A stretch of 64,000 nucleotides of DNA, from the NCBI GenBank assembly GCA_023249645.1, contig JAHFCF010000004.1, forward strand, positions 821 through 64,820. Reading direction: 5' to 3'. The notes under the pieces were generated by a model that worked only from the letters and a program-made list of their open reading frames with translations, had not been told where the DNA came from and did not search any database. Position 1 is the first letter of the stretch. Each line of letters starts with the position of its first letter. The stretch comes from Elusimicrobiota bacterium (GTDB lineage Bacteria; Elusimicrobiota; Elusimicrobia; UBA1565; UBA9628). The translations under genes were made by a program, and so were the position numbers. This document shows, piece by piece, positions 4,269 through 47,920 of this stretch.

Positions 4269-4861
4269 ACCCGCCCATGGCTGATATTTTTCTCAGACAA
4301 TTGGCCGTCGGGCCGATGCAGAATTTCTCCTATCTCGTCGGCGCGGCTGCCGGCCAGGAATGCGTGGTCGTGGATCCGGGATGGGACGCTGAAAAGATCC
4401 TCGCCTCCGCTCGCTCCGAGGGGCGCCGCATCGCGGCGATCCTGCTGACCCACGGGCATTTCGACCATCTCGGGGCTCTCAAGGAGCTCTCGCGCGCGGT
4501 TCCCGTTCCCGTGATCTCTTCTCAGGGCAAGGACCAGGATGCGGCCTTCGCCGGTCTGGAATTGCGGTTCCTGCATACCCCCGGGCATACCCCTGATTCC
4601 CAGTGCATCCTGGCCGCGGGCCAGCTCTTCACCGGGGACACCCTTTTCCTTGACTGCTGCGGCCGCACGGACCTGCCAGGATCGAGCCCCGCCCAGATGC
4701 ACCAGAGCCTGCGGCGTCTGGCGGAGTTGCCTGCGCCGACGATGATCTGGCCCGGCCATGATTACGGACCCAAGCCTTCCGCGACCTTGGGCGAAGTCCT
4801 CCAGTTCAACCCCTATCTGGCGGCCGCCACCCTGCAGGATTTCCTCAAACTGGAGGGATGA
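4265..4861 (+). CDS. MBL-fold metallo-hydrolase (glyoxalase II-like)
   Basis: THGHFDHLGAL, HTPGHTPDS, GDTLF, HDYG motifs; ATGA overlap with ftsB stop and with lgt start. Confidence 0.75.
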   Translation: MNPPMADIFLRQLAVGPMQNFSYLVGAAAGQECVVVDPGWDAEKILASARSEGRRIAAILLTHGHFDHLGALKELSRAVPVPVISSQGKDQDAAFAGLELRFLHTPGHTPDSQCILAAGQLFTGDTLFLDCCGRTDLPGSSPAQMHQSLRRLAELPAPTMIWPGHDYGPKPSATLGEVLQFNPYLAAATLQDFLKLEG

Positions 4862-5652
4862 TGCAGCCTGTCTTGTTTTCTTTTTTGGGCTGGCGCTTCT
4901 ACAGCTACGGCCTGCTGATCGCTGTGGGCGGTCTGGCTGCGTACCGGCTCTGGCATTCGCAGCGGCGCTCGATGGGCCTGCGCAGCGACGAAGATTTTTG
5001 GCTCCTGCTCAATTTCCTCTTTTTGGGCGGATTCATCGGCGGCCGGATCCTTTATCTCGTGGAATATGTTCCTTATAGATGGCCTGAGCTCAAGGCGGCG
5101 CTCTTCTCCTTCAACAGCGGCTTTTCCGTGCTGGGGGCTTTCGGCGGGGTCGTGGCCGCTGTCTGGGTATTCGCTTGCTGGCGCCGATGCGGATTCCTGA
5201 GCATGCTCGATCACGTGTGCCTGGGCGCCGCGCTGTGGCATGTCTTCGGCCGCCTGGGCTGTTTTGCCGCCGGCTGCTGCTATGGACGGCCAACAGTCCG
5301 TGCCTGGGGCGTGCGGTTCACGGATCCGTCGTCCATGGTTCCCGTCGGCCTGCGGGGCGTCGCTCTGCATCCGACCCAGCTTTATGAAGCTGCCGGCGAA
5401 CTGCTGATTTTCCTGTGCCTATGGTTAGCGGTGCGGCCGTGTCTGGAGCGAGGACAGATTAAGCCTGGTTTTTTGACCGGAGCTTATTTCCTGGCTTACA
5501 GCATCCTGCGCTTCTCCTTGGAGTTCTGGCGCGGCGACACGGCGCCGGGCCTCGTTGGTTTATCCGCTGGACAGATTCTATCCCTTGGACTCGGATTCGC
5601 GGGCCTTGGACTGATCCTATGGAGGCGTGAAGCGCCATGCATCCTGTCCTGA
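4858..5652 (+). CDS. lgt: Prolipoprotein diacylglyceryl transferase (Lgt), paralog 1
   Basis: Multi-TM protein with GGRILY, HPTQLYE, RFSLEFWRGD Lgt-family blocks; signature region reads GRLGCFAAGCCYGRPT. Confidence 0.85.
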   Translation: MMQPVLFSFLGWRFYSYGLLIAVGGLAAYRLWHSQRRSMGLRSDEDFWLLLNFLFLGGFIGGRILYLVEYVPYRWPELKAALFSFNSGFSVLGAFGGVVAAVWVFACWRRCGFLSMLDHVCLGAALWHVFGRLGCFAAGCCYGRPTVRAWGVRFTDPSSMVPVGLRGVALHPTQLYEAAGELLIFLCLWLAVRPCLERGQIKPGFLTGAYFLAYSILRFSLEFWRGDTAPGLVGLSAGQILSLGLGFAGLGLILWRREAPCILS

Positions 5653-6422
5653 TCCAATACGGAGTCTTCAAGCTCCCCACCTACGGGGTCTTCGTCGCCC
5701 TGGGCTATCTGGCGGGCATCCTGTGGCTGCAGAGCCGCCGGCAGGAGATGGGCCTCGATGAGACGAAGTTCTGGCGCCTCATCTATGTCCTCTTCTTCGG
5801 CGCCATCGCCGGGGGAAAGCTCATGTACTGGGCCGTCTCCTATCGCGAGATCGTTTCCGGCCGGCTTTCCCTGTTCGGCGATCTGCGCTATGGCTTCGTC
5901 TTCTTCGGCGGCGTTCTGGGCGCGGCGGCGCTGGCCTGGGTCGCGAAATGGTGGCTCGGCTTCGAGTTCCTCTCCCTGGCTGATTATTTCAGCGCGGTTC
6001 TGCCCTTGGGTCATGCGGTGGGACGCCTGGGTTGTTTGGCGGCCGGGTGTTGCTATGGCCGGCCGACGACCCTGCCTTGGGGCGTTGTTCTGGGCGGAGA
6101 TCCGGCGAGTTCCACGCCTCTCGAACTCTGGGGAGTGCCGCTGCATCCCACGCAGATCTATGAGTCGCTGGCCAATCTCCTCATCTGGCTCTTTTTAGCT
6201 TTTGCCCTCCTGCCGAAGGTCACAAGTCGCCGCCTGAGAGCAGGAACCGTTTTCTTCTCCTACGCGATCCTCTACGGCTCGGCGCGCTTTGTCATCGAGT
6301 TCTTCCGTTACGATGACCGCGGGGCGTCGCTCTACCCCTTTTCCATCTCGCAGTGGATTTCCCTGGCCGCCATCTTCCTGGCGGCCGGCTTGCTGATGAA
6401 GCGGGGAGTCAAGGCCCGATGA
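5637..6422 (+). CDS. lgt: Prolipoprotein diacylglyceryl transferase (Lgt), paralog 2 (tandem duplicate)
   Basis: Same architecture: GGKLMY, HPTQIYE, RFVIEFFRYDD; signature GRLGCLAAGCCYGRPT; overlaps paralog 1 by 16 nt. Confidence 0.85.
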   Translation: MHPVLIQYGVFKLPTYGVFVALGYLAGILWLQSRRQEMGLDETKFWRLIYVLFFGAIAGGKLMYWAVSYREIVSGRLSLFGDLRYGFVFFGGVLGAAALAWVAKWWLGFEFLSLADYFSAVLPLGHAVGRLGCLAAGCCYGRPTTLPWGVVLGGDPASSTPLELWGVPLHPTQIYESLANLLIWLFLAFALLPKVTSRRLRAGTVFFSYAILYGSARFVIEFFRYDDRGASLYPFSISQWISLAAIFLAAGLLMKRGVKAR

Positions 6423-7381: not shown

Positions 7382-7395
7382 GATGATTTTTGTCA
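7382..7395. promoter_or_regulatory. ATGAT-N4-GTCAT inverted-repeat box upstream of Rieske/cyt b/multiheme operon
   Basis: ATGATttttGTCAT at 7382-7395 in AT-rich 115-nt intergenic gap; same box architecture recurs at 11641, 11663, 24934, 58689. Confidence 0.3.
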
Positions 7396-7479
7396 TTTTT
7401 CTTGAGCGCGATTATAACTATGATGCATCTTGAGGATATGGAACAATTTCCTTTATTCCCCGCCGGGAGGGCTTGAGTC

Positions 7480-7914
7480 GTGGAATCCATGACCCGCAAA
7501 AGATTCTTGAACCTGCTCCTGGGCGGCGGCGTGCTGGGCTGCCTCGGCTCGGTGATCTATCCCGTCCTGCGTTATCTGCTGCCGCCCGAACAGGTGGAGG
7601 CCGAGCCGGACACGCTGAAGGCCGGGACGATGAAGGATTTTCCCATCGGAGCCAGCAAGATCTTCAAGTTCGGCCGCCAACCCGTCATCGTGATCCGCGA
7701 CGTCAAGGGCGTCTTCCACGCCTTGACCGCGACGTGCACGCATCTCGACTGCATCGTACAATACAGCAAGGAAGCGGACCTGATCTGGTGCGCCTGCCAT
7801 AATGGGAAATACGATCTGAGCGGCAAGAACATCTCGGGTCCGCCGCCCCGGCCGCTGCAGGCGTTCACGGTGAGCGTCAAGGGCGAGGATGTCCTGGTGG
7901 TGAGGACGGCATGA
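7480..7914 (+). CDS. Rieske [2Fe-2S] subunit of a cytochrome bc/b6f-type complex
   Basis: CTHLDC...CACHNGKY Rieske boxes, N-terminal RKRFLN Tat-like signal; GGAGG RBS 9 nt upstream of GTG 7480. Confidence 0.9.
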   Translation: MESMTRKRFLNLLLGGGVLGCLGSVIYPVLRYLLPPEQVEAEPDTLKAGTMKDFPIGASKIFKFGRQPVIVIRDVKGVFHALTATCTHLDCIVQYSKEADLIWCACHNGKYDLSGKNISGPPPRPLQAFTVSVKGEDVLVVRTA

Positions 7915-8969
7915 ACGTTCTCAGCGGCCAGCTGCTGGATTGGGTCGATGAAAGGCTGCATGTGCGCCCGCTCATCGAGATGGCCCGGCATAAGGCCGTG
8001 CCGGTGCACCGGGGCAGCGTTTTCTATTACGCGGGCGGGGTCTGTCTCTTCCTTTTTATCCTGCAGGTGGCTTCGGGCATCCTCCTCTTGATGTACTATC
8101 GCGTGGGGGCCGACTCTTCCTATGAGAGCGTCCGGTACATCTCCGCGAAGGTGTCCTTCGGCTGGCTCATCCGTTCGGTCCACAGCTGGGGCGCCAACAT
8201 CATGATCTTCTTCGTGCTCACGCATATGTTCAGCGTCTTCCTGATGAAGGCCTTCCGCAATCCCCGGGAACTGACCTGGATGTCCGGCTGCGTCCTTTTG
8301 GGCCTGTCCATGGCTTTCGGATTCAGCGGGTATCTTCTGCCCTGGAACGAGCTGGCCTTCTTCGCCACGAAAGTGGGGACCGACATCATCGGCCAGGTCC
8401 CTCTCGTCGGCCATTGGATGCTCAAGATCGTCCGCGGCGGCGACGAGGTCACGGGGGCGACGCTTTCGCGATTCTTCGGCCTTCACGTGGCCGTGCTTCC
8501 GGCGCTGCTGTCTGTGACCATCGGGCTGCATCTGACTTTCGTGCAGATCCAGGGCATGGCCGAGGTGCGAGAGGCCAAGAAGACCATGCCTTTCTTCCCG
8601 AATTTCTTCCTGCGGGACGCCATGCTCTGGTTGGTGGTCTTGAACGCGGTCGCGATCCTGTCGGTCTTCTTCCCCTGGGAATTGGGCAAGAAGGCCGAGG
8701 CCTTGTCTTCGGCGCCGGCCGGCATCAAGCCTGAATGGTATTTCCTGTCGCAGTACCAGTTCCTCAAGCTCCTGCCGCCGCGCATCCTCCTGATCCCCGG
8801 CGAGCTCTGGGGGATCATGGTGCTCGGTACGACCGGAGGCCTTTTGTTCCTGACGCCCTTCTGGGAGAAAGCCTTGCCTGAAGAGAGGAAAGAGATCGTC
8901 GTCCGCCTGCTCGGTTGGGGAGGCCTGGCCGTGCTCCTGGCCATGACCCTGTGGGGGTACCTCTCATGA
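7911..8969 (+). CDS. Cytochrome b (fused cytochrome b6 / subunit IV type) of the bc complex
   Basis: 352 aa, multiple TM helices with conserved His pairs, PEWYF motif; ATGA overlap with Rieske gene. Confidence 0.9.
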   Translation: MNVLSGQLLDWVDERLHVRPLIEMARHKAVPVHRGSVFYYAGGVCLFLFILQVASGILLLMYYRVGADSSYESVRYISAKVSFGWLIRSVHSWGANIMIFFVLTHMFSVFLMKAFRNPRELTWMSGCVLLGLSMAFGFSGYLLPWNELAFFATKVGTDIIGQVPLVGHWMLKIVRGGDEVTGATLSRFFGLHVAVLPALLSVTIGLHLTFVQIQGMAEVREAKKTMPFFPNFFLRDAMLWLVVLNAVAILSVFFPWELGKKAEALSSAPAGIKPEWYFLSQYQFLKLLPPRILLIPGELWGIMVLGTTGGLLFLTPFWEKALPEERKEIVVRLLGWGGLAVLLAMTLWGYLS

Positions 8970-10201
8970 GGCGCGTGGCGATGACCGTCCTGCTCTCGAT
9001 GCTCACGGCGGGCCCGGCTGCGGCCGTCCAGAACCAATGCGCCGTCTGCCATGCGACTTTGGGCGAGAAGCATCAGGCCATCCTCAAAGCCTTCGACAAC
9101 GACATCCACCGGGAGCGGGGGCTGTCCTGCGATTCCTGCCACGGCGGCAACCCGGCTCTCGACGATGCGGCGGCGGCCATGAGTCCGGATGCGGGCTTTG
9201 TGGGCGCGCCCTCCAAGGCGGACATGCCCAAGTTCTGCGGAAAATGCCATTCCAATCCTGCTTACATGAAGAAGTTCAACCCCTCTCTCCCCGTCGACCA
9301 GGAGCTGACGTACTACACCAGCGTCCATGGACAGAGGCTCAAGGCCGGCGATGCCGCTGTGGCCGCCTGCGCGGACTGCCACATCGCGCACTCCATCAGG
9401 CCGGCCAAGGATCCCACATCCTCCGTCTATGTGAAGAACATCCCGCAGACCTGCGGCAAGTGTCACTCGAATGTCCAGCTGATGGCTCCCTACAAGATCC
9501 CCACCGATCAGCTCGCCCAGTACACCAGCAGCGTGCATGGCAAGGCTCTCTTTGAGAAAGGCGATACCGCCGCTCCGGTCTGCACCACCTGCCACGGCAA
9601 CCACGGAGCCGTCCCGCCGGGCGTCGAGAACATCGGCCAGGTCTGCGGCATGTGCCACGTGCACAACGCGGAGTTCTTCCAGTCCAGCCCCATGGCCAAG
9701 CCCTGGGCCAAACGCAAGTTCCACATGTGCGCCACCTGCCATCATGAGCACGACATCCAGCACCCGACCGCGCAGCTGCTTTCGCCGGACAACGGCATCT
9801 GCATGAAATGCCACAGTCCTTCATCCCCGCAGATCGCGGTCGCTTCCGCCATGCAGAAGAAGCTGGAGTCCATCGAGGACGCTTACCAGCGCGCCCAGAA
9901 GGACATTCTCGCGGCCGAGGAGAAGGGCATGGACATGGCCGAGGCTCGCGATCTTTGGGACGCCTCGCGCATGGCCATGTACCAGTCCAAGACGGCGATC
10001 CATCATTTCAGCGCGGCGAGTGTGGCCGAGGTGGCTGATCCGGGGATCCAGAACGCGGAGAAGGCCGATCAGGCGGCCAAGGATGCGGCGGCGGATTTCC
10101 AGAACCGCCGCATCGGTCTCGGGGTCGCCAGCCTGTTCATCACCTTCCTGGTGGTGGTCATCTACCTCAAGATCAAGGACTTCGAATCGTCCCAGGGCTG
10201 A
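8966..10201 (+). CDS. Nonaheme c-type cytochrome, C-terminally membrane anchored, third subunit of the Rieske/cyt b complex
   Basis: Signal peptide, 9 CxxCH motifs (CAVCH, CDSCH, CGKCH, CADCH, CGKCH, CTTCH, CGMCH, CATCH, CMKCH), C-terminal TM helix; ATGA overlap with cyt b. Confidence 0.85.
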   Translation: MRRVAMTVLLSMLTAGPAAAVQNQCAVCHATLGEKHQAILKAFDNDIHRERGLSCDSCHGGNPALDDAAAAMSPDAGFVGAPSKADMPKFCGKCHSNPAYMKKFNPSLPVDQELTYYTSVHGQRLKAGDAAVAACADCHIAHSIRPAKDPTSSVYVKNIPQTCGKCHSNVQLMAPYKIPTDQLAQYTSSVHGKALFEKGDTAAPVCTTCHGNHGAVPPGVENIGQVCGMCHVHNAEFFQSSPMAKPWAKRKFHMCATCHHEHDIQHPTAQLLSPDNGICMKCHSPSSPQIAVASAMQKKLESIEDAYQRAQKDILAAEEKGMDMAEARDLWDASRMAMYQSKTAIHHFSAASVAEVADPGIQNAEKADQAAKDAAADFQNRRIGLGVASLFITFLVVVIYLKIKDFESSQG

Positions 10202-10208: not shown

Positions 10209-11630
10209 GTGAATCGGCACGAGAGGCTGGTCGTTCTCATCTGGGTCGCTGGCTCCTTGGCCGGATGCGCCGCCCCTTTGATGCAGGCGTCGACGAAGGG
10301 GGATGCCGAGGCCGCCAGGGCCTGGCTCGACAAGGGTGCGGACCCCGACGTGCGCGGAGGGTATCGCCATGGGGAGACCGCCCTCATGGCCGCCGCGGCG
10401 GGGGGGCATCTCCCCGTCGTCAAGCTTCTCGTGGAACGAGGAGCGAAGGTCAACGCCGCCGGCGATCGCGGAGAAACCGCTCTGATGCGGGCCGTGCATC
10501 ATGGATACCTGCCCATCGTCCAATACCTGATCGAGAAAGGCGCGGACGTCAATCACAAAGGGATACAGGGTACGACCGCCCTGCATTATGCGGCCTGGAG
10601 CAGCCGTGACGAGATCGTCCAATGCCTCTTGGACCATGGCGCTGACGTCAACGCCGCCGACGAGATGACGATCGGCCGTACGCCTCTGGGCCTGGCGGCC
10701 TATTTCGGCGATCAGGCCGTGGCGCAAGTTCTTCTGAGTCGCGGTGCGGATGCGCGCATCCTTGCGGCCAACGGCAAGCTGCCGGCGGAGCTCGCGACCC
10801 AGCGGGGCCATGGGGAGATCTCCCAAATGATCCGGCGCGCCATGGCCGGAGAATTACCCCAGGCGGCGGCATCGGCCCCGGCCTCCTTTTCCGATGAAGA
10901 CATGCCCCAATACCATCTCCGCCAGAAGCCGGACAATTACGCCGTTGTGGTGGGAGTCTCGAACTATGCGGGCCTGCCTCAGGCGCCTTTCGCGCGCCAC
11001 GATGCCCAAGCCGTGCGCGATCATCTCGCCGCCCTGGGCACCCCGCTCGACCACATCCTGTTTCTGACCGACAACGAGTCCACCCGGGCTGGTCTGGTCA
11101 AAACCCTGGAGGCGCGCCTTCCCCGTCTTGCTCAGGAACGCTCCACGGTTTTTTTCTATTTTTCAGGGCACGCGCTTCTCGAACCCAAGACCGGACGCAT
11201 CTTTTTGGCGCCCATGGATGGCGACGCCGAATTCCTTGAAGAGACGGCCTACCCGCTGGAGCGCCTCTCTCAGGATTTGGGAGGGCTCAAGGCGGCTCGC
11301 GTCCTGGCGATGTTGGAATGGGACTTCCCAGGAGTCCAGGAGCCGTCAGTCTCAACTCCAGCGCCCATGGGGAAAATCCTGGCATGGACATCTTCTCGTC
11401 CTGGGGAGTTTTCCGGTACGCTCCCGGAGCAGAGCCATGGGGCATTCACCTACTTCCTGCTGCGCGGTCTCAATGGCGCGGGCCAAGACGGCGCCGGCGC
11501 AATCACGGCCCGAGCCCTCTACGATTATGCATCGGCGCACGTGCAGGAGACAGCGCGCCGGCTCGGCCGCGAGCAGACTCCTCAATGGTCGGCCGTTTCC
11601 GCTGGAGCGGATTCTCTGAGATTCCGCTAG
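10209..11630 (+). CDS. Lipoprotein with ankyrin repeats fused to a caspase-like (peptidase C14) domain
   Basis: GTG start gives lipobox LAGC; >=5 ankyrin repeats (GETALMxAxxxGHLxxVxxLxxxGAxVN); C-terminal YAVVVGVSNY...FFYFSGHA caspase His-Gly block. Confidence 0.75.
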   Translation: MNRHERLVVLIWVAGSLAGCAAPLMQASTKGDAEAARAWLDKGADPDVRGGYRHGETALMAAAAGGHLPVVKLLVERGAKVNAAGDRGETALMRAVHHGYLPIVQYLIEKGADVNHKGIQGTTALHYAAWSSRDEIVQCLLDHGADVNAADEMTIGRTPLGLAAYFGDQAVAQVLLSRGADARILAANGKLPAELATQRGHGEISQMIRRAMAGELPQAAASAPASFSDEDMPQYHLRQKPDNYAVVVGVSNYAGLPQAPFARHDAQAVRDHLAALGTPLDHILFLTDNESTRAGLVKTLEARLPRLAQERSTVFFYFSGHALLEPKTGRIFLAPMDGDAEFLEETAYPLERLSQDLGGLKAARVLAMLEWDFPGVQEPSVSTPAPMGKILAWTSSRPGEFSGTLPEQSHGAFTYFLLRGLNGAGQDGAGAITARALYDYASAHVQETARRLGREQTPQWSAVSAGADSLRFR

Positions 11631-11742: not shown

Positions 11743-13092
11743 ATGCCAGAAGCACAAGGAACCGGGAGCAAAAAATTCGGAGTCGGCTTTATTCTCTTTT
11801 CGGTGCTTTTCACAGCCTGGCTTGTTCCGCCTCTGTATCGCGGGATCCAAGGGATCTGCCCCATGCGGCCGGGCCTTATTAAGGAAGCAGGGGCTGTCCC
11901 TGGCTTCGCCCGCAAATACGGCCTGAGCTGCTCACAGTGCCACACGGCCTGGCCCCTCCTCAATGATTACGGCCGGCAGTTCAAGCTCAACGGCTATGTG
12001 CGCGAACCGGGAAGCAAGGAAGGAGTTTTGGAAGGGTCGGGAGGGTATTGGACTGAGAAGATATTCCCCTGGGGCGTGGTGGCGCGTTCGCGGCCCTATG
12101 ACAAGAACACGACCGTCGACAGGGAGTTCCGCTTCCAACCTATCCAGGACGCGGACTTCTTCGTCGCTGGCGGGGACGCGGCCAAGCATATCTCCTGGTT
12201 CGGAGAGGTCGACGCCAACAACACGACCGACACGGCCTTCAGCGTGAACATGGCCGACATCCAAGCGGGCTACCATCCTAGCCAGTACCTCAACATCATC
12301 GCCGCCCGCCGCGGTTTCTTCGTCATGGATCCCTACCAGAACATCTCCAACTTCGGCAGCCCGACGATCACGGGACGCGCCATCGCCGGAGGCCAGACCG
12401 ACCAGGGCAACCTCTCGGGCAACGTGATGGACCAGACCACCCAGACCATGTTGGCTTTCGGTGAGGTGGACAAAGAGGGATTGGGAGCGCTCTACTACGC
12501 CGCGGGCATGTCGGCCGGAAACGCCAACGACACCGGCACGAGCGCCAAGGCCGGCAACCTGCGCCTGGCCTACGACACGCTCAAGGGCCTCGAGATCGGG
12601 GCCTTCGGCAGCTCGGGACGCGAATACAACGGGCTGGTGGATCAGAACGGCAACCAAGACCGGGTCAAGTTCACCAAATACGGGCTCGACTACACGCTCG
12701 AGGCCAAGGGCTTTGTCAGCCGCGGCGCCTGTCTCGTGTCCAACGAAAAGGACGAACAGTTGGCCAACTCAACGGTGGAGGTGGATGAGAACGGCAATCC
12801 CGTGATCAAGTCCACCACCAAGGCCGCCTATGCCGAACTTCTCTATGTCTATAAGAGGCAGGGCGACACGTTCCCGTTCCTCGTGCCCTTGGTGCGCGAG
12901 AACTGGTACACGACCTTCAACGGCAAGAGGAGCTTCAACTACGTCACGGCCCAGCTGGCCCATTACTTCGCTCCCAACATGAAGGGATTCGTGGAATGGT
13001 CCGGAGACACCAAGCAGGACTTGCAGGGCGTCAATAACGTGAGCTCTGCCAAGAGTTCGCGGTGGAGCCTGCAGTTCGAATTGGGCTTCTAG
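11743..13092 (+). CDS. Candidate Cyc2-like fused monoheme cytochrome c / outer-membrane beta-barrel porin
   Basis: Signal peptide, single CxxCH (CSQCH) within first ~70 aa, then ~380 aa of alternating amphipathic beta-strand-like sequence ending in ...LQFELGF (C-terminal Phe typical of OM barrels). Confidence 0.6.
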   Translation: MPEAQGTGSKKFGVGFILFSVLFTAWLVPPLYRGIQGICPMRPGLIKEAGAVPGFARKYGLSCSQCHTAWPLLNDYGRQFKLNGYVREPGSKEGVLEGSGGYWTEKIFPWGVVARSRPYDKNTTVDREFRFQPIQDADFFVAGGDAAKHISWFGEVDANNTTDTAFSVNMADIQAGYHPSQYLNIIAARRGFFVMDPYQNISNFGSPTITGRAIAGGQTDQGNLSGNVMDQTTQTMLAFGEVDKEGLGALYYAAGMSAGNANDTGTSAKAGNLRLAYDTLKGLEIGAFGSSGREYNGLVDQNGNQDRVKFTKYGLDYTLEAKGFVSRGACLVSNEKDEQLANSTVEVDENGNPVIKSTTKAAYAELLYVYKRQGDTFPFLVPLVRENWYTTFNGKRSFNYVTAQLAHYFAPNMKGFVEWSGDTKQDLQGVNNVSSAKSSRWSLQFELGF

Positions 13093-13111: not shown

Positions 13112-13639
13112 ATGAAAGGACGAGGCATCGCCGGAGGTCTGGCCATTGCGGCCGTGCTGTGGGGCGCGGGAGAGCTCCGGTCTCAGGATGAGGAGGTCAA
13201 GACATTCCCTTTCGACAAGGGTCCTGAGACCATCGACGTGTCGAGCTATCCCAAGGAACAGCAGGACAACTATCCGGTCTTCGCCGAGAAGTGCTCCAAA
13301 TGCCACACCCTGGCGCGGCCGATCAACTCGCCCTTCGCCCTGCCCGAGGAGTGGGATGCCTACGTCCACAAGATGCAGCACAAGAAGCGTTCAGGCGTGG
13401 ACGCTGACAGCGCCAAGACGATCATCGACTTCCTATCCTATGACTCCTCCGTGCGCAAGAAGGAGATCCTCGCCAAAAAGATCCAGGAGAAGAAGGACGG
13501 CAAGTACGACCTGCAGGCGGTGATGGACGCCGCCGAGAAGCAGGCCCAGACGGCGGCCCCGAAAGATGAATCGCAGCCCAAGGAAGCCGATAAATCTGCA
13601 GCGCCACAAAAGGCGGAGACTCCTAAAAAAGGCGACTGA
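13112..13639 (+). CDS. Periplasmic monoheme c-type cytochrome with Lys-rich C-terminal tail
   Basis: Signal peptide, single CSKCH motif, 175 aa; 20 nt downstream of Cyc2-like gene. Confidence 0.6.
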   Translation: MKGRGIAGGLAIAAVLWGAGELRSQDEEVKTFPFDKGPETIDVSSYPKEQQDNYPVFAEKCSKCHTLARPINSPFALPEEWDAYVHKMQHKKRSGVDADSAKTIIDFLSYDSSVRKKEILAKKIQEKKDGKYDLQAVMDAAEKQAQTAAPKDESQPKEADKSAAPQKAETPKKGD

Positions 13640-13758
13640 CTCTCATTTTTCATCTGACGACGCAAAAGTTTTTTCAAATAGAAGCTGTGCCTTGGAAAAA
13701 GTTCCCCATGGCGACTTGCGGAACGAAAAGTGCTTATTATTTCATCATTTCTTCGATG

Positions 13759-13782
13759 TTTACTTTCAGCGCTGAAAGTAAA
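13759..13782. promoter_or_regulatory. 24-bp perfect palindrome (TTTACTTTCAGC|GCTGAAAGTAAA) upstream of actA; candidate operator
   Basis: Perfect inverted repeat in the 236-nt AT-rich gap before ACIII operon, ~26 nt upstream of a TATAAT (13808-13813). Confidence 0.35.
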
Positions 13783-13875
13783 AACAAAAAAATCTTTCAA
13801 TTTTCAGTATAATTTCATCCCGAGGTCGCCATTTTTTTAGACAATCGGATTTTTAAGACCATTTCACTGGCAGCC

Positions 13876-14928
13876 GTGGTCTTTCTTCGGCTGACCACTC
13901 CGGCCTTGGCCGCGAAGGCTCCTTCCCAGATCCAAAAATCAGCCGCCCTTTTCATCATGAAATGCGCCAAGTGCCACACGATCGGCGCCGGCGACCGCGT
14001 GGGGCCGGATCTGAGGGGGGCCGCTGACAGGCATGAACGCGAGTGGCTCGTGAAATTCATCATGAGTCCGGGAGTCTTTCTGGCCTCTGACCCCGCGGCC
14101 CAGAAACTTCTGGAAAAATACAACGGCGTACGCATGGAGGAGACGCATCTGGCTCGCGCGGACGTGGAAGGCATCCTGGAATATCTCAAGGCCGCCAGCG
14201 CCGGCGGATTGTCCTCGCAGGCGCCTCTTGCCGTCGAGGAAGAGCCCATGCGTCTCAAAGTCCGAATGCCGGAGGAGGGTTTCTCCGTCTTCTGGCCGGG
14301 GCTGGCGTTCCTTTTCCTTCTTTTGGCAGCGGCGGCGGCGCTTTGGCAATTTAGAGGCCATCGGCCGGCGATAGCCCTCTTGTTCGTCTGCGCTGCACTC
14401 GCCTATTGGACCTTCGGCGGCCGGCGCTACTATCACCTTTTGGGGAATCAGCAGGGCTATGAGCCGGTCCAGCCCATCGCTTTCTCCCACGCGCGCCACG
14501 CCGGGAGCCTGGGCATCGCCTGCCTCTACTGCCATTATGCGGCGGAAAGAAGCGATGTGGCGGCCGTGCCTGCGGTCAACGTCTGCATGAATTGCCACGG
14601 CGCCGTGCGCAAGGCTTTCTCTGCCAAGACCCCTTCCCCCGAGATCGCCAAGCTGCTTGCCGTCTGGGAGAAGCATGAGGCCTCGATCCCCTGGGTCAGG
14701 GTGCATCAGCTGCCGGATTACGTCCATTTCACGCACAGGATCCACGTCAACAATAATATCCAGTGCCAGGAATGCCACGGCCCCGTGGAGACGATGGAGC
14801 GCGTCCGGCAGGCCAGCGCGCTCTCCATGGGCTGGTGCATCGCCTGCCATCGCCTCAAGACGGGCGACGCGCCGTCGCACTGGAAGCGCGCCAGCGGGCC
14901 GCTGGACTGTGCGGCCTGCCATTGGTGA
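13876..14928 (+). CDS. actA: Alternative complex III subunit ActA, hexaheme (extra N-terminal class I monoheme domain + pentaheme domain, two TM helices)
   Basis: CAKCH...GP.L class-I domain, two hydrophobic helices, then CLYCH, CMNCH, CQECH, CIACH, CAACHW; GTG start. Confidence 0.85.
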   Translation: MVFLRLTTPALAAKAPSQIQKSAALFIMKCAKCHTIGAGDRVGPDLRGAADRHEREWLVKFIMSPGVFLASDPAAQKLLEKYNGVRMEETHLARADVEGILEYLKAASAGGLSSQAPLAVEEEPMRLKVRMPEEGFSVFWPGLAFLFLLLAAAAALWQFRGHRPAIALLFVCAALAYWTFGGRRYYHLLGNQQGYEPVQPIAFSHARHAGSLGIACLYCHYAAERSDVAAVPAVNVCMNCHGAVRKAFSAKTPSPEIAKLLAVWEKHEASIPWVRVHQLPDYVHFTHRIHVNNNIQCQECHGPVETMERVRQASALSMGWCIACHRLKTGDAPSHWKRASGPLDCAACHW

Positions 14929-14936
14929 GAGAGAAC

Positions 14937-17813
14937 ATGCACGAGCCACCCCAGGACCCATTCAACGCCGGCGACAGCCTGACGCGGCGCGACTTCCTCA
15001 AGCTCCTCTCGACCAGCTTCGCGGCGCTCTCCCTGGTCGGCTGCAAACTGCGCCCGCCCAAGGAAAAGATCATCCCCTTCCTCCAACAGCCCGAGGAGTC
15101 GGTTCCCGGGCTGGCGTCCTGGTATGCCTCGACATGTTCCGGCTGCCCGGCCGCCTGCGGCGTGCTCGCCAAGAGCCGTGACGGCCGCCCCATCAAGCTG
15201 GAGGGAAATCCCGACCATCCTCTCTCTCGCGGCGGGCTCTGCGCGCGCGGCCAGGCCACGGTGCTCGACCTTTACGACTCCCAGAGGCTCCGGACGCCTT
15301 GGCAGGGCGCCTCTCCCATCTCCTGGGCCCAGGCGGATGCGGCCATCATCGCCAAGCTTAAGAAGTCCGACGCGATCCGGATCGTCAGCCGCACGGTCAG
15401 CAGCCCCTCGCTTCTGGCCGCCCTGGAAAAGTTCAAGCAGCGCTTTCCCGCCGCGCGACACATCGTCTACGAGCCCCTGTCGAGCTCGGCCATCGTGGAG
15501 GCCCACCACCGAACCCACGGCCAGGCCGTTCTGCCTCATTATCACTTCGACCGCGCGCGGGTGATCGTCAGCTTTGACGCGGATTTCCTGGGGACCTGGA
15601 TCTCCCCGGTCGAGTTCATCAAGGATTGGTCCGCCAACCGCCGCCTGGACAAGGAGCGCGGGCTCATGTCCTGGCACGCCCAATTCGAGCCCCGCCTCTC
15701 CTTGACCGGGACCAACGCGGATCTGCGCCGCCCGCTCAAGCCCTCCCAGGAATTCGCCACGTTGGCGGCCTTGGGCCGCATGGTCGCCCGTCGGGTGGGC
15801 TGGCAGGGCCCACTGCCCCCGGAGGAGGGGGCCCCCGGCGTGGCTGAGAGCCTCTTGGAGCACACCGCCGGCATGCTCACGGACGCCAAGCGGCGCAGCC
15901 TGGTCGTCAGCGGCTCCCAGGACCCTGACGCGCAGATGCTCGTCAATTGGATCAATGTCCTGCTGGACAATTACGGCTCCACCCTGGACATCGAGCGTCC
16001 CTCCCGGCAGAACCGCAGCGACGATGCGGCGATGGATCAGTTGATCGAAGAGATGAAGCGCGGCCAGGTCTCGGCCCTCCTGTGCCTGGACGCCAACCCC
16101 GCCTATGACCACCCGCGGGCCGCGGATTTTGTCCGCGCCATGGGCCGGGTGCAGCTTTCAATCGCCCTGGCCGACCGCAAAGACGAGACAGCCGCCCTCT
16201 GCGGTTTCCTCTGTCCGCTCTCCCACAGCCTGGAGTCTTGGGGCGATGCCGAGCCCGTGCCCGGCGTCCTGAGCCTGCAGCAGCCGCTGCTCTCCCCGAT
16301 CTTCGAGAGCCGCTCGGCTCTGGAGACCCTGCTGCGCTGGTCCGGCCAGAGCGTGAGCGCCTATGACTTCGTCAAGGAGCATTGGCGCCAGAACGTTTTT
16401 TCTCGCCGCAAAGGGAAGCAGGGCTTCACTTCTTTCTGGGATGAGGCCCTGCGGCGAGGGGCCGTCACGGTCGCGGCCGCTGCCTTGCCTGCCGGTCGAT
16501 TCGTCCCGGACGCGCTCTCCCGCCTGAAGCCTGCGCGACGTCCGGCCAAATCAGGCGACTTTGAGCTGGTGCCCTATGCCAGCACGGCCCTGGGAGATGG
16601 ACGCCAGGCCAACAATCCCTGGCTGCAGGAACTGCCGGATCCGATGTCCAGGGTCAGTTGGGGCAATTACGCCTCATTTTCCCCCGGCGACGCCCAAAGG
16701 CTTGGTCTGGAGGAGGGACGCGTGGTCCGGCTTTCGGTCCCCGGTCGGCAGGCGGAACTCCCCGTCCACATCCAGACGGGCCAGGCCGAAGGCGTGGTGG
16801 CAGCGGCCCTGGGCTATGGCCGCAAGAACGCGGGCCCCATCGCCGCCAACCATCCCATGGTCAAGATGCTGCCTTTGGAACGGGATCTTCTGGGTGGGGC
16901 CGACCTCTATGCCTGGCTCAAGACCCAGACCGTTTCCGTGACCGTGACTCCGGGACGCAGTCCCCTGGCCAAGGTCCAGATCTACGATTCCCTGACCGAT
17001 CCCCTGATGGGCCAGAAGCGTCCTTTTGTCCGCGAGACCACCCTGCAGGAGTACGTCCAGGACCCGCGCAGTGGCAATCCTGAAGTTCCTGAGGAGAAGG
17101 GTCTGTGGCCTCGCCATGAATACAAGGGACACAAATGGGGCATGGCCGTGGATCTCAATTCCTGCATGGGCTGCGGGGCCTGCGTCGTGGGCTGCCAGGC
17201 GGAGAACAACGTCCCGGTGGTCGGCAAGGCCGAGGTGCGCAAGAGCCGGGACATGGCGTGGATACGCATCGACCGCTACTATGAGGATGATCGGACGTCC
17301 TTCCAGCCCATCCTCTGCCAGCACTGCGACAACGCCCCCTGCGAGACCGTCTGCCCGGTCTTGGCCAGCGTCCACTCCACGGAGGGGCTCAGCATGCAGG
17401 TCTACAACCGCTGCGTGGGAACCCGCTACTGCAGCAACAACTGCCCCTACAAGGTGCGCCGCTTCAACTGGTTCGACTACGCGCACCAGGACCTGGTGCA
17501 GAACATGGCGCTCAACCCGGACGTCACGGTGCGATCGCGCGGCGTCATGGAGAAATGCTCCTTCTGCGTGCAGAGGATCTACTCGGCTAAATTCCAGGCC
17601 AAGCAGGAGGGGCGCCAGCTCAAGGACGGGGACGTCATCCCCGCCTGCGCCCAGAGCTGTCCGGCCGACGCCCTGGTCTTCGGGGATTTGAACGATCCCA
17701 ACAGCCGGGTCTCCCGCTTGGCGCGGGATTCGCGCAGCTATCGGGTGCTGGCCGAACTCGGCGTGGGACCGTCCATCTTCTACAGGACCAAGGTCCGTAA
17801 TCGGAGGGTCTAG
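14937..17813 (+). CDS. actB: Alternative complex III subunit ActB (molybdopterin-oxidoreductase-like domain fused to 4x[4Fe-4S] ferredoxin domain)
   Basis: Tat signal TRRDFLK, CSGCPAACG cluster, C-terminal CMGCGACVVGC / CQHCDNAPC / CSNNCPY ferredoxin motifs; ~958 aa. Confidence 0.9.
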   Translation: MHEPPQDPFNAGDSLTRRDFLKLLSTSFAALSLVGCKLRPPKEKIIPFLQQPEESVPGLASWYASTCSGCPAACGVLAKSRDGRPIKLEGNPDHPLSRGGLCARGQATVLDLYDSQRLRTPWQGASPISWAQADAAIIAKLKKSDAIRIVSRTVSSPSLLAALEKFKQRFPAARHIVYEPLSSSAIVEAHHRTHGQAVLPHYHFDRARVIVSFDADFLGTWISPVEFIKDWSANRRLDKERGLMSWHAQFEPRLSLTGTNADLRRPLKPSQEFATLAALGRMVARRVGWQGPLPPEEGAPGVAESLLEHTAGMLTDAKRRSLVVSGSQDPDAQMLVNWINVLLDNYGSTLDIERPSRQNRSDDAAMDQLIEEMKRGQVSALLCLDANPAYDHPRAADFVRAMGRVQLSIALADRKDETAALCGFLCPLSHSLESWGDAEPVPGVLSLQQPLLSPIFESRSALETLLRWSGQSVSAYDFVKEHWRQNVFSRRKGKQGFTSFWDEALRRGAVTVAAAALPAGRFVPDALSRLKPARRPAKSGDFELVPYASTALGDGRQANNPWLQELPDPMSRVSWGNYASFSPGDAQRLGLEEGRVVRLSVPGRQAELPVHIQTGQAEGVVAAALGYGRKNAGPIAANHPMVKMLPLERDLLGGADLYAWLKTQTVSVTVTPGRSPLAKVQIYDSLTDPLMGQKRPFVRETTLQEYVQDPRSGNPEVPEEKGLWPRHEYKGHKWGMAVDLNSCMGCGACVVGCQAENNVPVVGKAEVRKSRDMAWIRIDRYYEDDRTSFQPILCQHCDNAPCETVCPVLASVHSTEGLSMQVYNRCVGTRYCSNNCPYKVRRFNWFDYAHQDLVQNMALNPDVTVRSRGVMEKCSFCVQRIYSAKFQAKQEGRQLKDGDVIPACAQSCPADALVFGDLNDPNSRVSRLARDSRSYRVLAELGVGPSIFYRTKVRNRRV

Positions 17814-17819
17814 AGACCG

Positions 17820-19196
17820 ATGTCTGAAAAACATTTCTCAGTCCTGCGCGTGCCACTCGTCGACGGCGACAAGGATTGCCGGCAGGTCACCCGGGACATC
17901 TGCGCTCCCCTTCAAGTCGGCCCCACCCGCCTTTGGTACATCAGCTTCGCCGCCGCCGTGACGGCCTTGCTCATCGGCGTGACCGCGGTCACGGATCAGA
18001 TCTGGACCGGCATCGGGACCTGGGGCCTCAATAAGACGGTCGGCTGGTCCTGGGACATCACCAACTTCGTGTTCTGGGTCGGCATCGGCCATGCCGGCAC
18101 GCTCATCTCCGCCATCCTTTTCCTCTTCCGTCAGCACTGGCGCACCTCCATCAACCGTTCGGCCGAGGCCATGACCATCTTCGCCGTCATGTGCGCCGGA
18201 GTCTTCCCCGTCATCCACATGGGTCGGCCCTGGCTGGCCTATTGGGTCCTGCCCTATCCCAACCCCATGGGGCCTCTGTGGGTCAACTTCCGCTCCCCCT
18301 TGCTGTGGGATGTCTTCGCCATCAGCACCTATTTCACCATCTCGCTGACCTTTTGGTACGTGGGCCTTCTGCCGGACCTGGCCACCGCGGCCCGGGAGGT
18401 CGCCGAGCCTTGGCGGCGGCGCCTGTACAGCTGGCTGAGCCTCGGCTGGGACGGCTCCCAGAGGACCTGGTCCCACTACGAGAAGCTTTATCTGCTGCTG
18501 GCCGGACTGGCCACGCCGCTGGTCTTCTCCGTGCACACCATCGTCAGCTTCGACTTCGCCACCTCGATCGTCCCCGGCTGGCACACGACGATCTTCCCTC
18601 CCTACTTCGTCTGCGGCGCGATCTTCTCGGGCTTCGCGATGGTGCTCAGCCTCATGCTCATCGCGCGCCGGGTCATGAACTTCGAGGACTACATCACCCT
18701 GCGCCACATCGACGCGATGTGCAAGATCACGCTTCTCACCTCGCTCATCGTCGCTCTGGCTTACTCGACCGAGCTCTTCACCGCCTGGTACAGCGTCAAC
18801 CCTTACGAACGCTTCGCCTTCCTCAACCGCATCGAGGGCCCCTACCACTGGTTTTATCTGGTGATGATGACCTGCAACGTGGCCGTTCCCCAGGCCCTTT
18901 GGTCCAAGCGCGTGCGCACCACGCCCTGGGTGGTGTTTCTCATCTCGATCGCCATCAATATCGGCATGTGGCTGGAGCGCTTCGTGATCATCACGGTGTC
19001 CCTGCACCGGGATTTCCTGCCTTCCAGCTGGACGATGTACCATCCGACCTATATCGAGATCGCCACCTTCATCGGCAGCTTCGGACTCTTCTTCACCTGC
19101 TTCCTCCTTTTCTGCCGCCTGCTGCCGATGATCGCGATCAGCGAGATCAAGGGCGTGCTCCATCACGCGCGCCGCGCCCCGGGGGACGAGTCATGA
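17820..19196 (+). CDS. actC: Alternative complex III subunit ActC (NrfD/PsrC-family quinol-interacting membrane subunit)
   Basis: 458 aa polytopic membrane protein, NrfD-like; position after ActB. Confidence 0.9.
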
Positions 19197-19711
19197 ACCG
19201 CCTCTGGGTGGGGATCTTCGACTCGCACGAGCATCTGTTGCGCGCGACGCGCTTGGCCCGCCAGCGCGGCTTGACGATCCACGATACCTATGCGCCCTTC
19301 CCCATCCACGGCATGGATGAGGCCATGGGCCTGGAGCCGTCGCCCCTGGGATGGTTGTGCTTTCTCTTCGCCATGACAGGTCTGACCTTGGCGCTCTCAT
19401 TCCAATACTGGGTCTCGGTCTTCGACTGGCCCATGAACATCGGCGGAAAATCCTACAATGCCTCGCCCGCGCTGCTGCCCATCGCCTTCGAGTTCACCGT
19501 CCTGTGCGCCGGATTGGGCAGCGTGGCGGCCTTCCTGTTCCTGCGCCGGCTCTCCCCGGGCAAAAAGCCGGCCCTGGGCGGCTTGGGCGCTCTCGATGAC
19601 CGATTCCTGCTGGCCCTCCAGGCCGGGCCCGAGGCCTCCGCCGAAGAACTGCGCCGTTTCCTGCAGACGCAGGGGGCCTTGGATATTCACGAGGTGGCGC
19701 CAGACTCATGA
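19193..19711 (+). CDS. actD: Alternative complex III subunit ActD (DUF3341-type membrane subunit)
   Basis: [26 protein letters not shown]... with two TM helices; ATGA overlap with actC stop; only the in-frame 3' part of ORF 18191..19711 is real. Confidence 0.8.
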
Positions 19712-22056: not shown

Positions 22057-23216
22057 TGAGCGAGAGAGAGGGGATTTTTCGTCCGGATCAAAGGACCGTT
22101 CTGCGGCTCTGCATCGCAGCGGGCCTGGCGGCTTTTGCGGTCGGCCTGTGGAGGGCTCCCCACCGCGCCTGGGCCGGCCTGCTGCTCGGCAATTTTTATT
22201 TTCTGTCTTTGGCCCTGGCGGGAGCCGTCTTCCTGGCCGTGCAATATGCCGCCGGCGCCGGCTGGTTTGCCCTCTTGAAGCGCATCCCCGAGGCCATGAC
22301 CGCCTATCTGCCCGTCGGCGCAGGGCTGGTGGGCTTGCTGGGTCTCTGCGGGCTGCGGGATCTCTATGTTTGGGCCAACCCGGCCACGGCTTCCAATGAC
22401 CCGATCCTGCTGGCCAAGGCGGCGTTCCTCAATGTCCCCGGCTATCTCCTCACGGCCGCGGTCTGCCTGCTCCTCTGGCATTTCTTGATCCGAGGACTCG
22501 TGGCCAATTCCCAAGCCCAGGATGACAACGGCGATCTGGCTTATACGGCCAAGAACGCCCGGTTGTCCTGCATCTTTTTAGTCGTGTTCGCGCTGACTTT
22601 TTCCCTGGTGAGCATGCAATGGCTCATGTCCCTGGAGCCGCACTGGTACAGCACGATCTATCCCTGGTATCTGTTCGGGGGGATCTTCGTCAATGCCGTC
22701 GCCGTCATGACCCTGCTGCTCCTGCTTTTGCGCCATCGGGGGCTGCTGCCGGAGGTGCGCGCCGGGCACCTGCATGATCTCGGAGAATATCTCTTCGCGT
22801 TCAGCGCGTTGTGGGCTTATCTCTGGTTCTCGCAATACCTCCTGATCTGGTATTCCAACATCCCTGAAGAAACCGTTCACTATGCGGCACGCTTTGGTCC
22901 GGGTTGGAACATCCTCTTCTGGGCCAACCCCGTGGTCAACTTCATTGTTCCCTTCATCCTTCTGCTGGAGGAGAGGAGCAAGAAAGACGAGCGGAGGCTT
23001 TTGGCCGCGACGCTGGTTTTGATCGCAGGCCACTGGCTGGATCTCTACCTGCTTGTTTTTCCAGCGATCCTTCCCCGTCCGCTCCTGGGATTCATCGAAC
23101 TCGGGATGTTTTTGGGTTTGGCGGCCGCCTTTCTTTTGCGATTCGATCAGGCCTTTCGCCGAGCCCCGCCGATCCCGTCGCGGGATCCTTTTTTAGGCGA
23201 AAGCCTGCATCATTAG
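22056..23216 (+). CDS. actF: Alternative complex III subunit ActF (second NrfD-like membrane subunit)
   Basis: ~386 aa polytopic membrane protein; start ATG 22056 overlaps actE stop by 1 nt (or GTG 22053). Confidence 0.85.
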   Translation: MSEREGIFRPDQRTVLRLCIAAGLAAFAVGLWRAPHRAWAGLLLGNFYFLSLALAGAVFLAVQYAAGAGWFALLKRIPEAMTAYLPVGAGLVGLLGLCGLRDLYVWANPATASNDPILLAKAAFLNVPGYLLTAAVCLLLWHFLIRGLVANSQAQDDNGDLAYTAKNARLSCIFLVVFALTFSLVSMQWLMSLEPHWYSTIYPWYLFGGIFVNAVAVMTLLLLLLRHRGLLPEVRAGHLHDLGEYLFAFSALWAYLWFSQYLLIWYSNIPEETVHYAARFGPGWNILFWANPVVNFIVPFILLLEERSKKDERRLLAATLVLIAGHWLDLYLLVFPAILPRPLLGFIELGMFLGLAAAFLLRFDQAFRRAPPIPSRDPFLGESLHH

Positions 23217-36806: not shown

Positions 36807-36828
36807 GGCATTATCCTCGCTGTGTCCT

Positions 36829-37695: not shown

Positions 37696-37808
37696 TTTTG
37701 ATGTCCTCCGTAATTTATGATGAAACATTAAGATTAGTATGACAAAAAGGTCATTTTTTCACAATGACGGACATTATGGAAAAAGGATGACGTTCGCCGG
37801 TTAAATCA

Positions 37809-45407: not shown

Positions 45408-45410
45408 GCC

Positions 45411-47408: not shown

Positions 47409-47920
47409 ATAAGAATTCAGAGTCCGTGCCTTCCGGGAAAGGAGAAAGTCTTCCCTCCAGGCACGGCGGGCCCATGCCCGCCGAGCCTAAGATCGTGGCG
47501 TTCTTCTGCAACTGGTGCACGTACACGGCCGCGGACCTGGCCGGCGTCTCGCGCCTGAAATACGCCCCCAATGTCCGCGTGATCAGGGTCATGTGCTCGG
47601 GCCGGGTGGACCCTCAGTTCGTCTTGGACGCCTTTGCGCGCGGGGCTGACGGGGTCCTGCTGGGCGGCTGCCATCCCGGCGACTGCCACTATGCGGAGGG
47701 CAACTACAAGACCCTTCGCCGTATGCGCATGTTGGCCCGCATGCTCAAGGACATGGGCATCCATGACGGCCGCTTCCGCCTGGAGTGGATCTCCGGAGCT
47801 GAGGGCGACAAGGTCAAGGCCGTGGTCAATGACATGACGGCCAAGGTGCGCGCCCTGGGTCCATTGAACATGCCCGATAGATTCAAGGAATGGGACAAGG
47901 AGATGGTCCATGCCCGATAA
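47405..47920 (+). CDS. mvhD: Methyl-viologen-reducing hydrogenase delta subunit (MvhD)
   Basis: IVAFFCNWCTYTAADLAG...MCSGRVDP...GGCHPGDCHY MvhD-family Cys pattern. Confidence 0.85.
   Translation: MNKNSESVPSGKGESLPSRHGGPMPAEPKIVAFFCNWCTYTAADLAGVSRLKYAPNVRVIRVMCSGRVDPQFVLDAFARGADGVLLGGCHPGDCHYAEGNYKTLRRMRMLARMLKDMGIHDGRFRLEWISGAEGDKVKAVVNDMTAKVRALGPLNMPDRFKEWDKEMVHAR

Follow-up and report, generated by a model that had tools for sequence, protein, structure and literature searches.

A Rieske/cytochrome b operon from an Elusimicrobiota bacterium with a membrane-anchored nonaheme cytochrome c at the gene position of cytochrome c1 or f

Complexes of the complex III superfamily usually carry a monoheme cytochrome c1 or f, and the locus described here raises the question of whether a cytochrome with many more hemes can take that place. 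The locus is a three-gene operon encoding a Rieske protein, a cytochrome b and a cytochrome c with nine heme-binding motifs, and it lies within a 64,000-nucleotide (nt) stretch of the genome of an Elusimicrobiota bacterium (GenBank assembly GCA_023249645.1, contig JAHFCF010000004.1, positions 821 to 64,820 of the forward strand), which we refer to in its entirety as the window. We consider it likely that the three genes encode a single membrane complex of this superfamily, in which a nonaheme cytochrome c, anchored through its C-terminal helix, replaces the usual c1 or f and serves as the c subunit. This reading is based on the conserved linkage of the three genes, their ATGA translational coupling, the cofactor motifs of their products, a topology similar to that of cytochromes c1 and f, and the existence of precedents for multiheme subunits.

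The three genes follow one another on the same strand (Table 1), and both junctions, GGCATGAAC between the Rieske and cytochrome b genes and CTCATGAGG between the cytochrome b and nonaheme genes, are ATGA start/stop overlaps. The second overlap presumes that the nonaheme gene starts at the ATG at position 8966; public gene calls place the start at the ATG at 8981, 15 nt further in, which gives a protein of 406 amino acids (aa). The same 4-nt overlap between the cytochrome b and multiheme genes is found in three relatives (L003, L004 and L007; L numbers denote the related loci). In the Rieske gene, a second ATG is found at 7489. A scan for terminators and promoters inside the operon returned nothing above shuffle expectation. 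The promoter-like site upstream of the Rieske gene was read by eye; the promoter scan, which demanded a T at position 6 of the -10 hexamer, skipped TATAAC. Metagenomic contigs in ENA and Logan match the window at 100% identity. The GC content of the window is even (approximately 0.57-0.66), and the closest named relatives of all three proteins, and of one neighbouring gene, are metagenome-assembled genomes (MAGs) of Elusimicrobia. Considering the window alone, this is an intact, ordinary respiratory operon. An earlier note on this DNA, made without database searches, had described a Rieske gene, a fused b6/subunit-IV-type cytochrome b and a 9-CxxCH cytochrome with a C-terminal anchor at the position of c1 or f, all coupled by ATGA overlaps. 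The Pfam match of the first open reading frame (ORF), the presence of both Pfam halves of cytochrome b in one 352-aa ORF, the motif count and hydropathy of the third product, and a direct reading of both junctions bear out this description.

The Rieske protein matches Pfam Rieske (4e-13) and the TM_PetC anchor (7.5e-8), and it possesses the four cluster ligands, the two disulfide cysteines and the membrane anchor of bc-superfamily Rieske proteins. Its cluster boxes are CTHLDC (C86-T-H88-L-D-C91) and CACHNGKY (C102-A-C104-H105, in the numbering of the 144-aa protein), and the signature CTHLxC[IT]VQY…WCACHNGxY is invariant, in both boxes, in 14 Rieske orthologues from at least six phyla. The best NCBIfam match is the PetC protein of b6f, under the curated cut-off, while the best matches in the PDB are the b6f-type Rieske protein 8hn2_A (3e-20), which we take to be of green sulfur bacterial origin, followed by a Rieske protein of Kuenenia (9rk4, 3e-17). 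Compared with the canonical CPCHGS-x-Y box, a Gly occupies the position of the Ser and the Tyr is kept; according to the rule that links these Ser and Tyr residues to the cluster potential, summarised in PMC4122944, this combination predicts a cluster of low-to-mid potential, suited to menaquinol.

Cytochrome b combines matches to Pfam Cytochrome_B (5e-46) and, over residues 267-321, to the petD-like C-terminal half Cytochrom_B_C (2e-7). Residues 7-217 match cytochrome b6 in the PDB at 3e-53, above any bc1 cytochrome b, and residues 227-298 match subunit IV of the b6f complex at 8e-4. Two pairs of histidines, 91/105 and 192/207, align with the heme ligands of b6, and the pair in helix D (192/207) is separated by 15 positions, the spacing of the b6 type. 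The Qo motif is PEWY (KPEWYFL), located inside the Cytochrom_B_C match. The cysteine of heme ci is missing, Tyr40 aligning with Cys35 of spinach b6 ('fyYagg' vs 'fyClgg'). Hydropathy reveals five clear segments which, together with two likely helices read by eye, give about seven helices. This cytochrome b is thus of neither the standard b6f nor the standard bc1 type, and has a fused b6-like form, probably the one that Kao & Hunte 2014 (PMC4122944) grouped as 'Chlorobi/NC10/Acidobacteria'. Its identity to the cytochromes b of Chloracidobacterium and Methylomirabilota MAGs is 51-58%, and these sequence identities, the PEWY motif and the fused b6-like form lend indirect support to a place in that clade.

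The third product contains CxxCH exactly nine times (residues 25, 55, 91, 135, 163, 206, 227, 255 and 279), and these motifs account for every one of its 18 cysteines. It begins with a signal peptide (MRRVAMTVLLSMLTAGPAAA/VQ) and has a single strongly hydrophobic helix, which is C-terminal (residues 383-401). Its Pfam matches are confined to the Paired_CXXCH, cytochrome c7 and cytochrome c3 families, and it is no cytochrome f. All nine motifs are invariant in an alignment of 79 sequences, so the set is not a chance pattern; nine motifs are present in 81 of 84 orthologues, and the C-terminal helix in 82 of the 84. Seven further histidines outside the motifs (H48, H121, H142, H191, H213, H262 and H346) are invariant across the 79 homologues, and several methionines, including M72 and M101, are invariant or nearly so. 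Judging from the alignment, the seven histidines together with Met72 and Met101 could supply the sixth ligand to all nine hemes, which fits an electron-transfer chain, not a catalytic site. An internal duplication (residues 85-160 against 157-232, 42% identity, E 7e-15) indicates that the protein is built from repeated two-heme modules. In the AlphaFold2 model (predicted local distance difference test, pLDDT, of 93.5), helices span residues 288-319, 325-347 and 350-410, so that a three-helix stalk (residues 288-382) precedes the membrane helix and the last helix continues straight into it. Because the invariant His346 sits in the second stalk helix, at least one heme should, in this model, pack near the membrane against the stalk. 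An assignment to the DmsE/MtrA decaheme family was rejected, the NCBIfam score being 45 bits against a cut-off of 192 and the protein having nine hemes and a C-terminal membrane anchor, where members of that family have ten hemes and are soluble in the periplasm. Some relatives of about 490 aa (L004, L005, L007 and L008, including MAGs named Bacteroidota) contain one extra two-heme module, for a total of 11 hemes.

A scan of one genome per species yielded at least 587 confirmed relatives, and the best 80 of these were used for the analysis of loci. They belong to Acidobacteriota (Blastocatellia, Pyrinomonadaceae, Chloracidobacterium and Terriglobia), Gemmatimonadota, Calditrichota, Zixibacteria RBG-1, KSB1, Ignavibacteria/Melioribacter (Bacteroidota), Marinimicrobia, Methylomirabilota and Elusimicrobiota. 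MAGs assigned to Granulicella and Terracidiphilus are among the hits, as are MAGs assigned to Chloracidobacterium and Melioribacter. We tested whether the multiheme gene is conserved beside the Rieske and cytochrome b genes, a linkage on which the proposal in the earlier note depended, and it was present in each of the roughly 75 loci with enough flank. An adjacent cytochrome b gene was seen in 73 of the 80 loci, the remaining seven being cut at or near a contig end, and the Rieske and cytochrome b genes are adjacent in every locus with enough flank; four out of four context look-ups, including Elusimicrobia, Chlamydiota-labelled and Bacteroidota MAGs, also displayed the adjacency of all three genes. 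As a rule, no more than 25 nt lie between the stop of cytochrome b and the start of the multiheme gene. The usual order is Rieske, cytochrome b and multiheme gene, with exceptions in five Gemmatimonadota and Methylomirabilota loci, where the multiheme gene comes first, and in L047, where 2 kb separate it from cytochrome b. Identities of the Rieske, cytochrome b and nonaheme proteins to those of the window are 75, 78 and 64% in L003, compared with approximately 50, 52 and 41% in Acidobacteriota; this parallel divergence of the three proteins across loci fits their inheritance as a unit.

Green sulfur bacteria possess a two-subunit Rieske/cytochrome b complex without a c1 subunit, and the multiheme protein might be no subunit at all, that is, a separate anchored periplasmic cytochrome sharing an operon with a complex of two subunits. 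The gap in L047, the five permuted loci and the presumed green sulfur origin of the closest solved Rieske protein, 8hn2_A, would agree with such an arrangement. We nevertheless regard it as quite unlikely, given that the adjacency is otherwise universal over at least eight phyla, with the two genes typically so closely spaced, that the topology with a single C-terminal helix is the same as in c1 and f, and that no cytochrome c other than the multiheme one is a constant member of the operon.

Several observations weigh against the reading of the three genes as one complex of this kind. A complete alternative complex III is encoded elsewhere in the window, and the Rieske/cytochrome b/nonaheme complex would consequently not be the sole quinol:cytochrome c route of this organism. 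The N-terminal motif of the Rieske protein that resembles a twin-arginine translocation (Tat) signal, TRKRFL (window 7489-7506), has RK, versus RR in most orthologues. A PDB sequence search (phmmer) with the nonaheme protein returned nothing under E 0.018, and Foldseek with its model gave weak fold matches only, the best being HAO 4n4m (E 0.0097, template modelling (TM) score 0.27). Separately, the RK variant of the Tat-like motif is common to the window and L009.

HAO and NrfA are the sole PDB folds that Foldseek reports with high probability, and the nonaheme protein could on that account be an NrfA/HAO-related catalytic enzyme and the operon a quinol-dependent reductase of nitrogen or sulfur oxyanions. 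In the same direction, some of the 490-aa relatives are named 'ammonia-forming cytochrome c nitrite reductase subunit c552' at NCBI, with a weak precomputed PF02335 match, and a quinol-dependent nitric oxide (NO) reductase and a hybrid-cluster protein are also encoded in the window. Such a role has been proposed for an HAO-like subunit that belongs to one of the anammox Rieske/cytochrome b complexes. The structural matches, however, have TM scores of 0.20-0.27 and root-mean-square deviations of 7-19 Å, and NrfA appears in the PDB sequence search only at E 0.25. In addition, catalytic cytochromes of the NrfA/HAO type are marked by a heme of special motif or ligation (CxxCK, or an open or cross-linked heme), and the protein has no CxxCK motif, all nine being CxxCH; its conserved His and Met residues are enough for a sixth ligand on every heme; and its two-heme repeats are as in electron-transfer cytochromes, its weak NCBIfam match being to decahemes of the DmsE/MtrA type. 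These features make a catalytic NrfA/HAO-like role unlikely, and we give an oxyanion-reductase operon hardly any weight.

How does this complex compare with known systems? With b6f, it shares an N-terminal stretch of cytochrome b (215 residues) that matches b6 best, the 15-residue spacing of the helix-D histidines, PEWY, about seven helices, a PetC-like Rieske anchor and a c-type subunit with an N-terminal periplasmic domain and a C-terminal helix. It differs from b6f in that b6 and subunit IV are fused in 352 aa, the cysteine of heme ci is a Tyr, a nine-heme protein unrelated to cytochrome f takes its place, and small subunits are not evident. The bc1 type is characterised by an eight-helix cytochrome b of about 380-450 aa, helix-D histidines 14 apart and a monoheme cytochrome c1, whereas here the protein has 352 aa, about seven segments and histidines 15 apart, and c1 is absent. 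We know of no green sulfur bacterial Rieske/cytochrome b operon with a cytochrome c gene, so the presence of the nonaheme gene in the operon distinguishes this locus from theirs. With the Chlorobi-NC10-Acidobacteria clade (PMC4122944), the common features are the fused b6-like cytochrome b, PEWY and the nearest solved Rieske protein (8hn2_A), and orthologues of the operon are present in MAGs of Chloracidobacterium and Methylomirabilota (L022, L037 and L061); Rieske box II is CACHNG here, versus CPCHGA/S in the clade.

The closest precedents for a multiheme subunit come from anammox bacteria and Zixibacteria. In Kuenenia, the gene clusters Kuste4569-4574 and Kustd1480-1485 encode Rieske/cytochrome b complexes with a multiheme c subunit (PMC12954380), in which a membrane-anchored hexa- or octaheme cytochrome c replaces cytochrome f. 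The likeness to the present complex extends to a b6-like cytochrome b and to the Rieske protein (9rk4, the second-best PDB match), and the multiheme subunits are likened by description only. Split b6 and subunit IV genes (with a five-helix subunit IV), heme cN and an NAD(P) oxidoreductase module are found in the anammox complexes only, as is, in one of them, the HAO-like subunit. The cluster of Zixibacteria RBG-1, noted by Castelle et al. 2013 (PMC3903129) as PetAB with multiheme cytochromes and MtrAB, is a direct orthologue (L017), with the same gene order and identities of 52% (Rieske), 52% (cytochrome b) and 43% (nonaheme protein). That paper did not present the nonaheme protein as an equivalent of c1 or f, and MtrAB belongs to the cluster there, whereas the MtrAB-like pair of the window lies 25 kb away. 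The Cbc-type quinol oxidases of Geobacter (e.g. CbcL) and CymA/ImcH likewise link the quinone pool to periplasmic multiheme chains; they lack a Rieske protein and a bc-type cytochrome b, and are incapable of a Q cycle. The earlier note had placed the operon among non-canonical bc complexes of metal-respiring, anammox and Nitrospira-like organisms. The non-canonical type and the anammox precedent stand (PMC12954380, PMC3903129), but among the best 80 matches the family is not typical of Geobacter or Nitrospira.

Relatives are named 'cytochrome bc complex cytochrome b subunit' and 'cytochrome c3 family protein' at NCBI, and our search of the full-text literature found neither a description of the nonaheme family as a subunit nor its biochemical characterisation. 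A passage of PMC5317091 attributes to Dibrova et al. 2013 the proposal that early anaerobic bc complexes had multiheme c subunits; the Dibrova et al. 2017 paper does not mention such subunits. The kind of complex, a Rieske/cytochrome b core with a multiheme cytochrome c, is therefore already recognised, and this particular nonaheme family is uncharacterised and widespread.

The anatomy of the genes, the cofactor motifs, the topology signals and the conserved linkage of the operon are direct observations; from them we infer the physical assembly of the complex, the type of quinone, the redox potentials, the direction of flow and the partners, and the earlier note's coupling of quinol oxidation to a periplasmic wire is likewise part of the proposed mechanism. 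In the simplest reading, menaquinol would be oxidised at the Qo site, with the first electron passing to the Rieske cluster, whose mobile head would hand it to the heme of the nonaheme subunit that lies nearest the membrane. From there, the nine hemes would lead the electron to acceptors in the periplasm. These may be small class I cytochromes c that feed terminal oxidases or an NO reductase; in many relatives, MtrA-like decaheme/porin conduits are further candidates. The second electron would cross the membrane via hemes bL and bH to a Qi site without heme ci, completing a proton-motive Q cycle.

Clustering of the ORFs flanking the related loci, followed by Pfam checks, identified several recurrent neighbours: a decaheme MtrA-like protein (39 loci), a monoheme class I cytochrome c (27 loci), 8-9-heme proteins (20 loci), a 751-aa heme-free protein that is a putative outer-membrane barrel without a Pfam match (17 loci), NapC/NirT-like proteins (16 loci) and NrfC/NrfD-like pairs (12-13 loci). 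Electron carriers thus recur beside the operon, in favour of the proposed complex. Putative MtrAB-like conduits adjoin it in roughly one locus out of five. A broader proposal, which we put forward tentatively and hold to be doubtful as a whole, is that the module is a widespread 'complex III for multiheme networks', an energy-conserving gateway in the inner membrane that, by a Q cycle, would join the menaquinone pool to porin-cytochrome conduits of the outer membrane in Acidobacteriota, the FCB group, Gemmatimonadota, Zixibacteria and Elusimicrobiota. If so, the gateway could run either way, in extracellular metal reduction or oxidation, and would fill the role of CymA, CbcL and ImcH in model metal reducers with proton-motive coupling added to it. 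Two arrangements recur among the neighbours. In an Acidobacteriota super-operon (L013-L015, L019-L022, L033 and others), a Crp-like regulator, the decaheme and the 751-aa putative barrel precede the Rieske gene, and cytochrome b and the nonaheme gene are followed by two 8-9-heme proteins, a tetraheme and a monoheme cytochrome c. In the second arrangement, genes for a small multiheme protein, an NrfC-like and an NrfD-like protein lie immediately upstream of the operon.

The finding is real and widespread, and it will not surprise a specialist. If the nonaheme protein is the equivalent of c1 or f, complex III delivers its electrons to a chain of nine hemes rather than to a single heme in a large fraction of the bacteria of soils and sediments, the carriers numbering at least 587 species-level genomes, including Acidobacteriota, Gemmatimonadota, Ignavibacteria, Calditrichota and Elusimicrobiota. 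The matter is relevant to how the quinone pool is linked to oxidases, nitrogen-oxide reductases and outer-membrane conduits in abundant, mostly uncultured groups, to the possible coupling of extracellular electron transfer to the Q cycle, and to multiheme cytochromes as early acceptors of Rieske/cytochrome b complexes, in the sense of the proposal that the passage of PMC5317091 credits to Dibrova et al. 2013.

Table 1. Coordinates of the operon and of other features of the window (positions of the 64,000-nt stretch).
Feature	Position	Strand	Description
Promoter-like site	7390..7418	+	TTGTCA - 17 nt - TATAAC; within the 116 nt of AT-rich sequence preceding the Rieske gene; consensus match only
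Rieske gene	7480-7914	+	144 aa; GTG start; GGGAGGG 9 nt upstream
Cytochrome b gene	7911-8969	+	352 aa, single ORF
Nonaheme cytochrome c gene	8966-10201	+	411 aa
Ankyrin-repeat/caspase lipoprotein gene	10209..11630	+	LAGC lipobox; Pfam Ank 1.6e-35, Peptidase_C14 1.6e-7; at least four ankyrin repeats
Cyc2-family fused monoheme cytochrome-porin (putative iron oxidase)	11743-13092	+	449 aa; AVPGFARKY-GLS-CSQCH-TAW-PLL; C-terminal Phe
Monoheme cytochrome c	13112-13639	+	175 aa, after the Cyc2-like gene
Co-directional block: small cytochrome c and complete alternative complex III	13112-23216	+	Forms one block with the preceding Cyc2-like gene
NapC/NirT-family multiheme cytochrome	23217-24863	-	548 aa; convergent with the end of the alternative complex III block
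Possible MtrAB-like porin-cytochrome conduit	34872-37728	-	663-aa weak MtrB/PioB match overlapping a 299-aa multiheme protein with three Paired_CXXCH
CbcL-like multiheme c/cytochrome b561 fusion, quinol oxidase type	40336-42378	-	680 aa

The gene that follows the operon encodes a lipoprotein with ankyrin repeats and a caspase domain. It begins 7 nt past the nonaheme stop, the scan placed no terminator-like site between them, and it is possibly co-transcribed with the operon. It is probably not a conserved subunit, because it is missing after the multiheme gene in relatives L003-L007. In L091, an ankyrin protein adjoins another, different Rieske/cytochrome b operon.

Further downstream lies a Cyc2-like gene. 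The published rule for Cyc2 (PMC8406198) describes proteins of at least 365 aa with a single CxxCH after AxPxFAR[Q/K][T/Y] and before PxL, and with a 16-strand porin; the length and motif of the product, and its 16-strand AlphaFold2 model (pLDDT 86.5), agree with it. Foldseek aligns the model with general porins (E 5e-11). On this sequence and model evidence, the protein belongs to the Cyc2 family and is a putative iron oxidase. The family of this protein comprises approximately 115 proteins, largely 'hypothetical', and all named carriers but one are Elusimicrobia MAGs; Cyc2 in an Elusimicrobia MAG was reported earlier (PMC8357290). The alternative complex III that follows consists of ActA to ActD and two further proteins, one of 782 aa with seven class I cytochrome c domains and one of 387 aa without a Pfam match. 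In the Elusimicrobia contigs L090 and L091, Cyc2 is again linked to alternative complex III, the 782-aa protein included, which suggests a conserved iron-oxidation module.

The presence of this gene permits a reversed reading, in which the same complex runs mainly backwards: the Cyc2-type porin would oxidise extracellular Fe(II), the 175-aa cytochrome c would carry the electrons, and these would pass through the nonaheme protein and the Rieske/cytochrome b core to quinone, driven by the proton-motive force, for NAD(P)H. In acidophilic iron oxidisers, the bc1 complex has been proposed to work uphill in this way, and Rieske/cytochrome b complexes are reversible in principle. The Cyc2-family gene lies 1.5 kb downstream of the operon on the same strand, followed by a monoheme cytochrome c, and Castelle et al. 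interpret the orthologous Zixibacteria cluster with MtrAB as serving iron oxidation (PMC3903129). We nonetheless judge a mainly reversed complex unlikely. A conserved link of Cyc2 to the complex was rejected, the 86 related loci having yielded no full-length match to the Cyc2-like protein or the 175-aa cytochrome and only a 37-residue fragment, in L058. Instead, the Cyc2-like gene is tied to alternative complex III in L090 and L091, and found with a cytochrome c only in L089; as it travels with alternative complex III in other Elusimicrobia, we do not count Cyc2 among the partners of the complex. The nonaheme family is, moreover, common in Terriglobia and Acidobacteriaceae, whose cultured members are mainly aerobic heterotrophs. 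Reverse operation for metal oxidation is possible without being exclusive of the forward flow from menaquinol preferred here.

Other redox and membrane genes complete the picture of the window. System II cytochrome c biogenesis genes (ResB and CcsA) lie beside the CbcL-like fusion, within 38554-42378 (-). The regions 44013-50408 (+) and 55100-60799 hold genes for a CCG-domain protein and an FAD/4Fe-4S oxidoreductase, for both subunits (small and large) of a NiFe hydrogenase and for a sensor with DUF438, hemerythrin and PAS domains. A quinol-type NO reductase, whose NorB has a cytochrome c-like domain, and a hybrid-cluster protein are encoded there as well. Upstream of the operon, at 4858-6422 (+), two overlapping paralogues of the prolipoprotein diacylglyceryl transferase Lgt (264 and 261 aa) stand in tandem, both with full-length Pfam matches.

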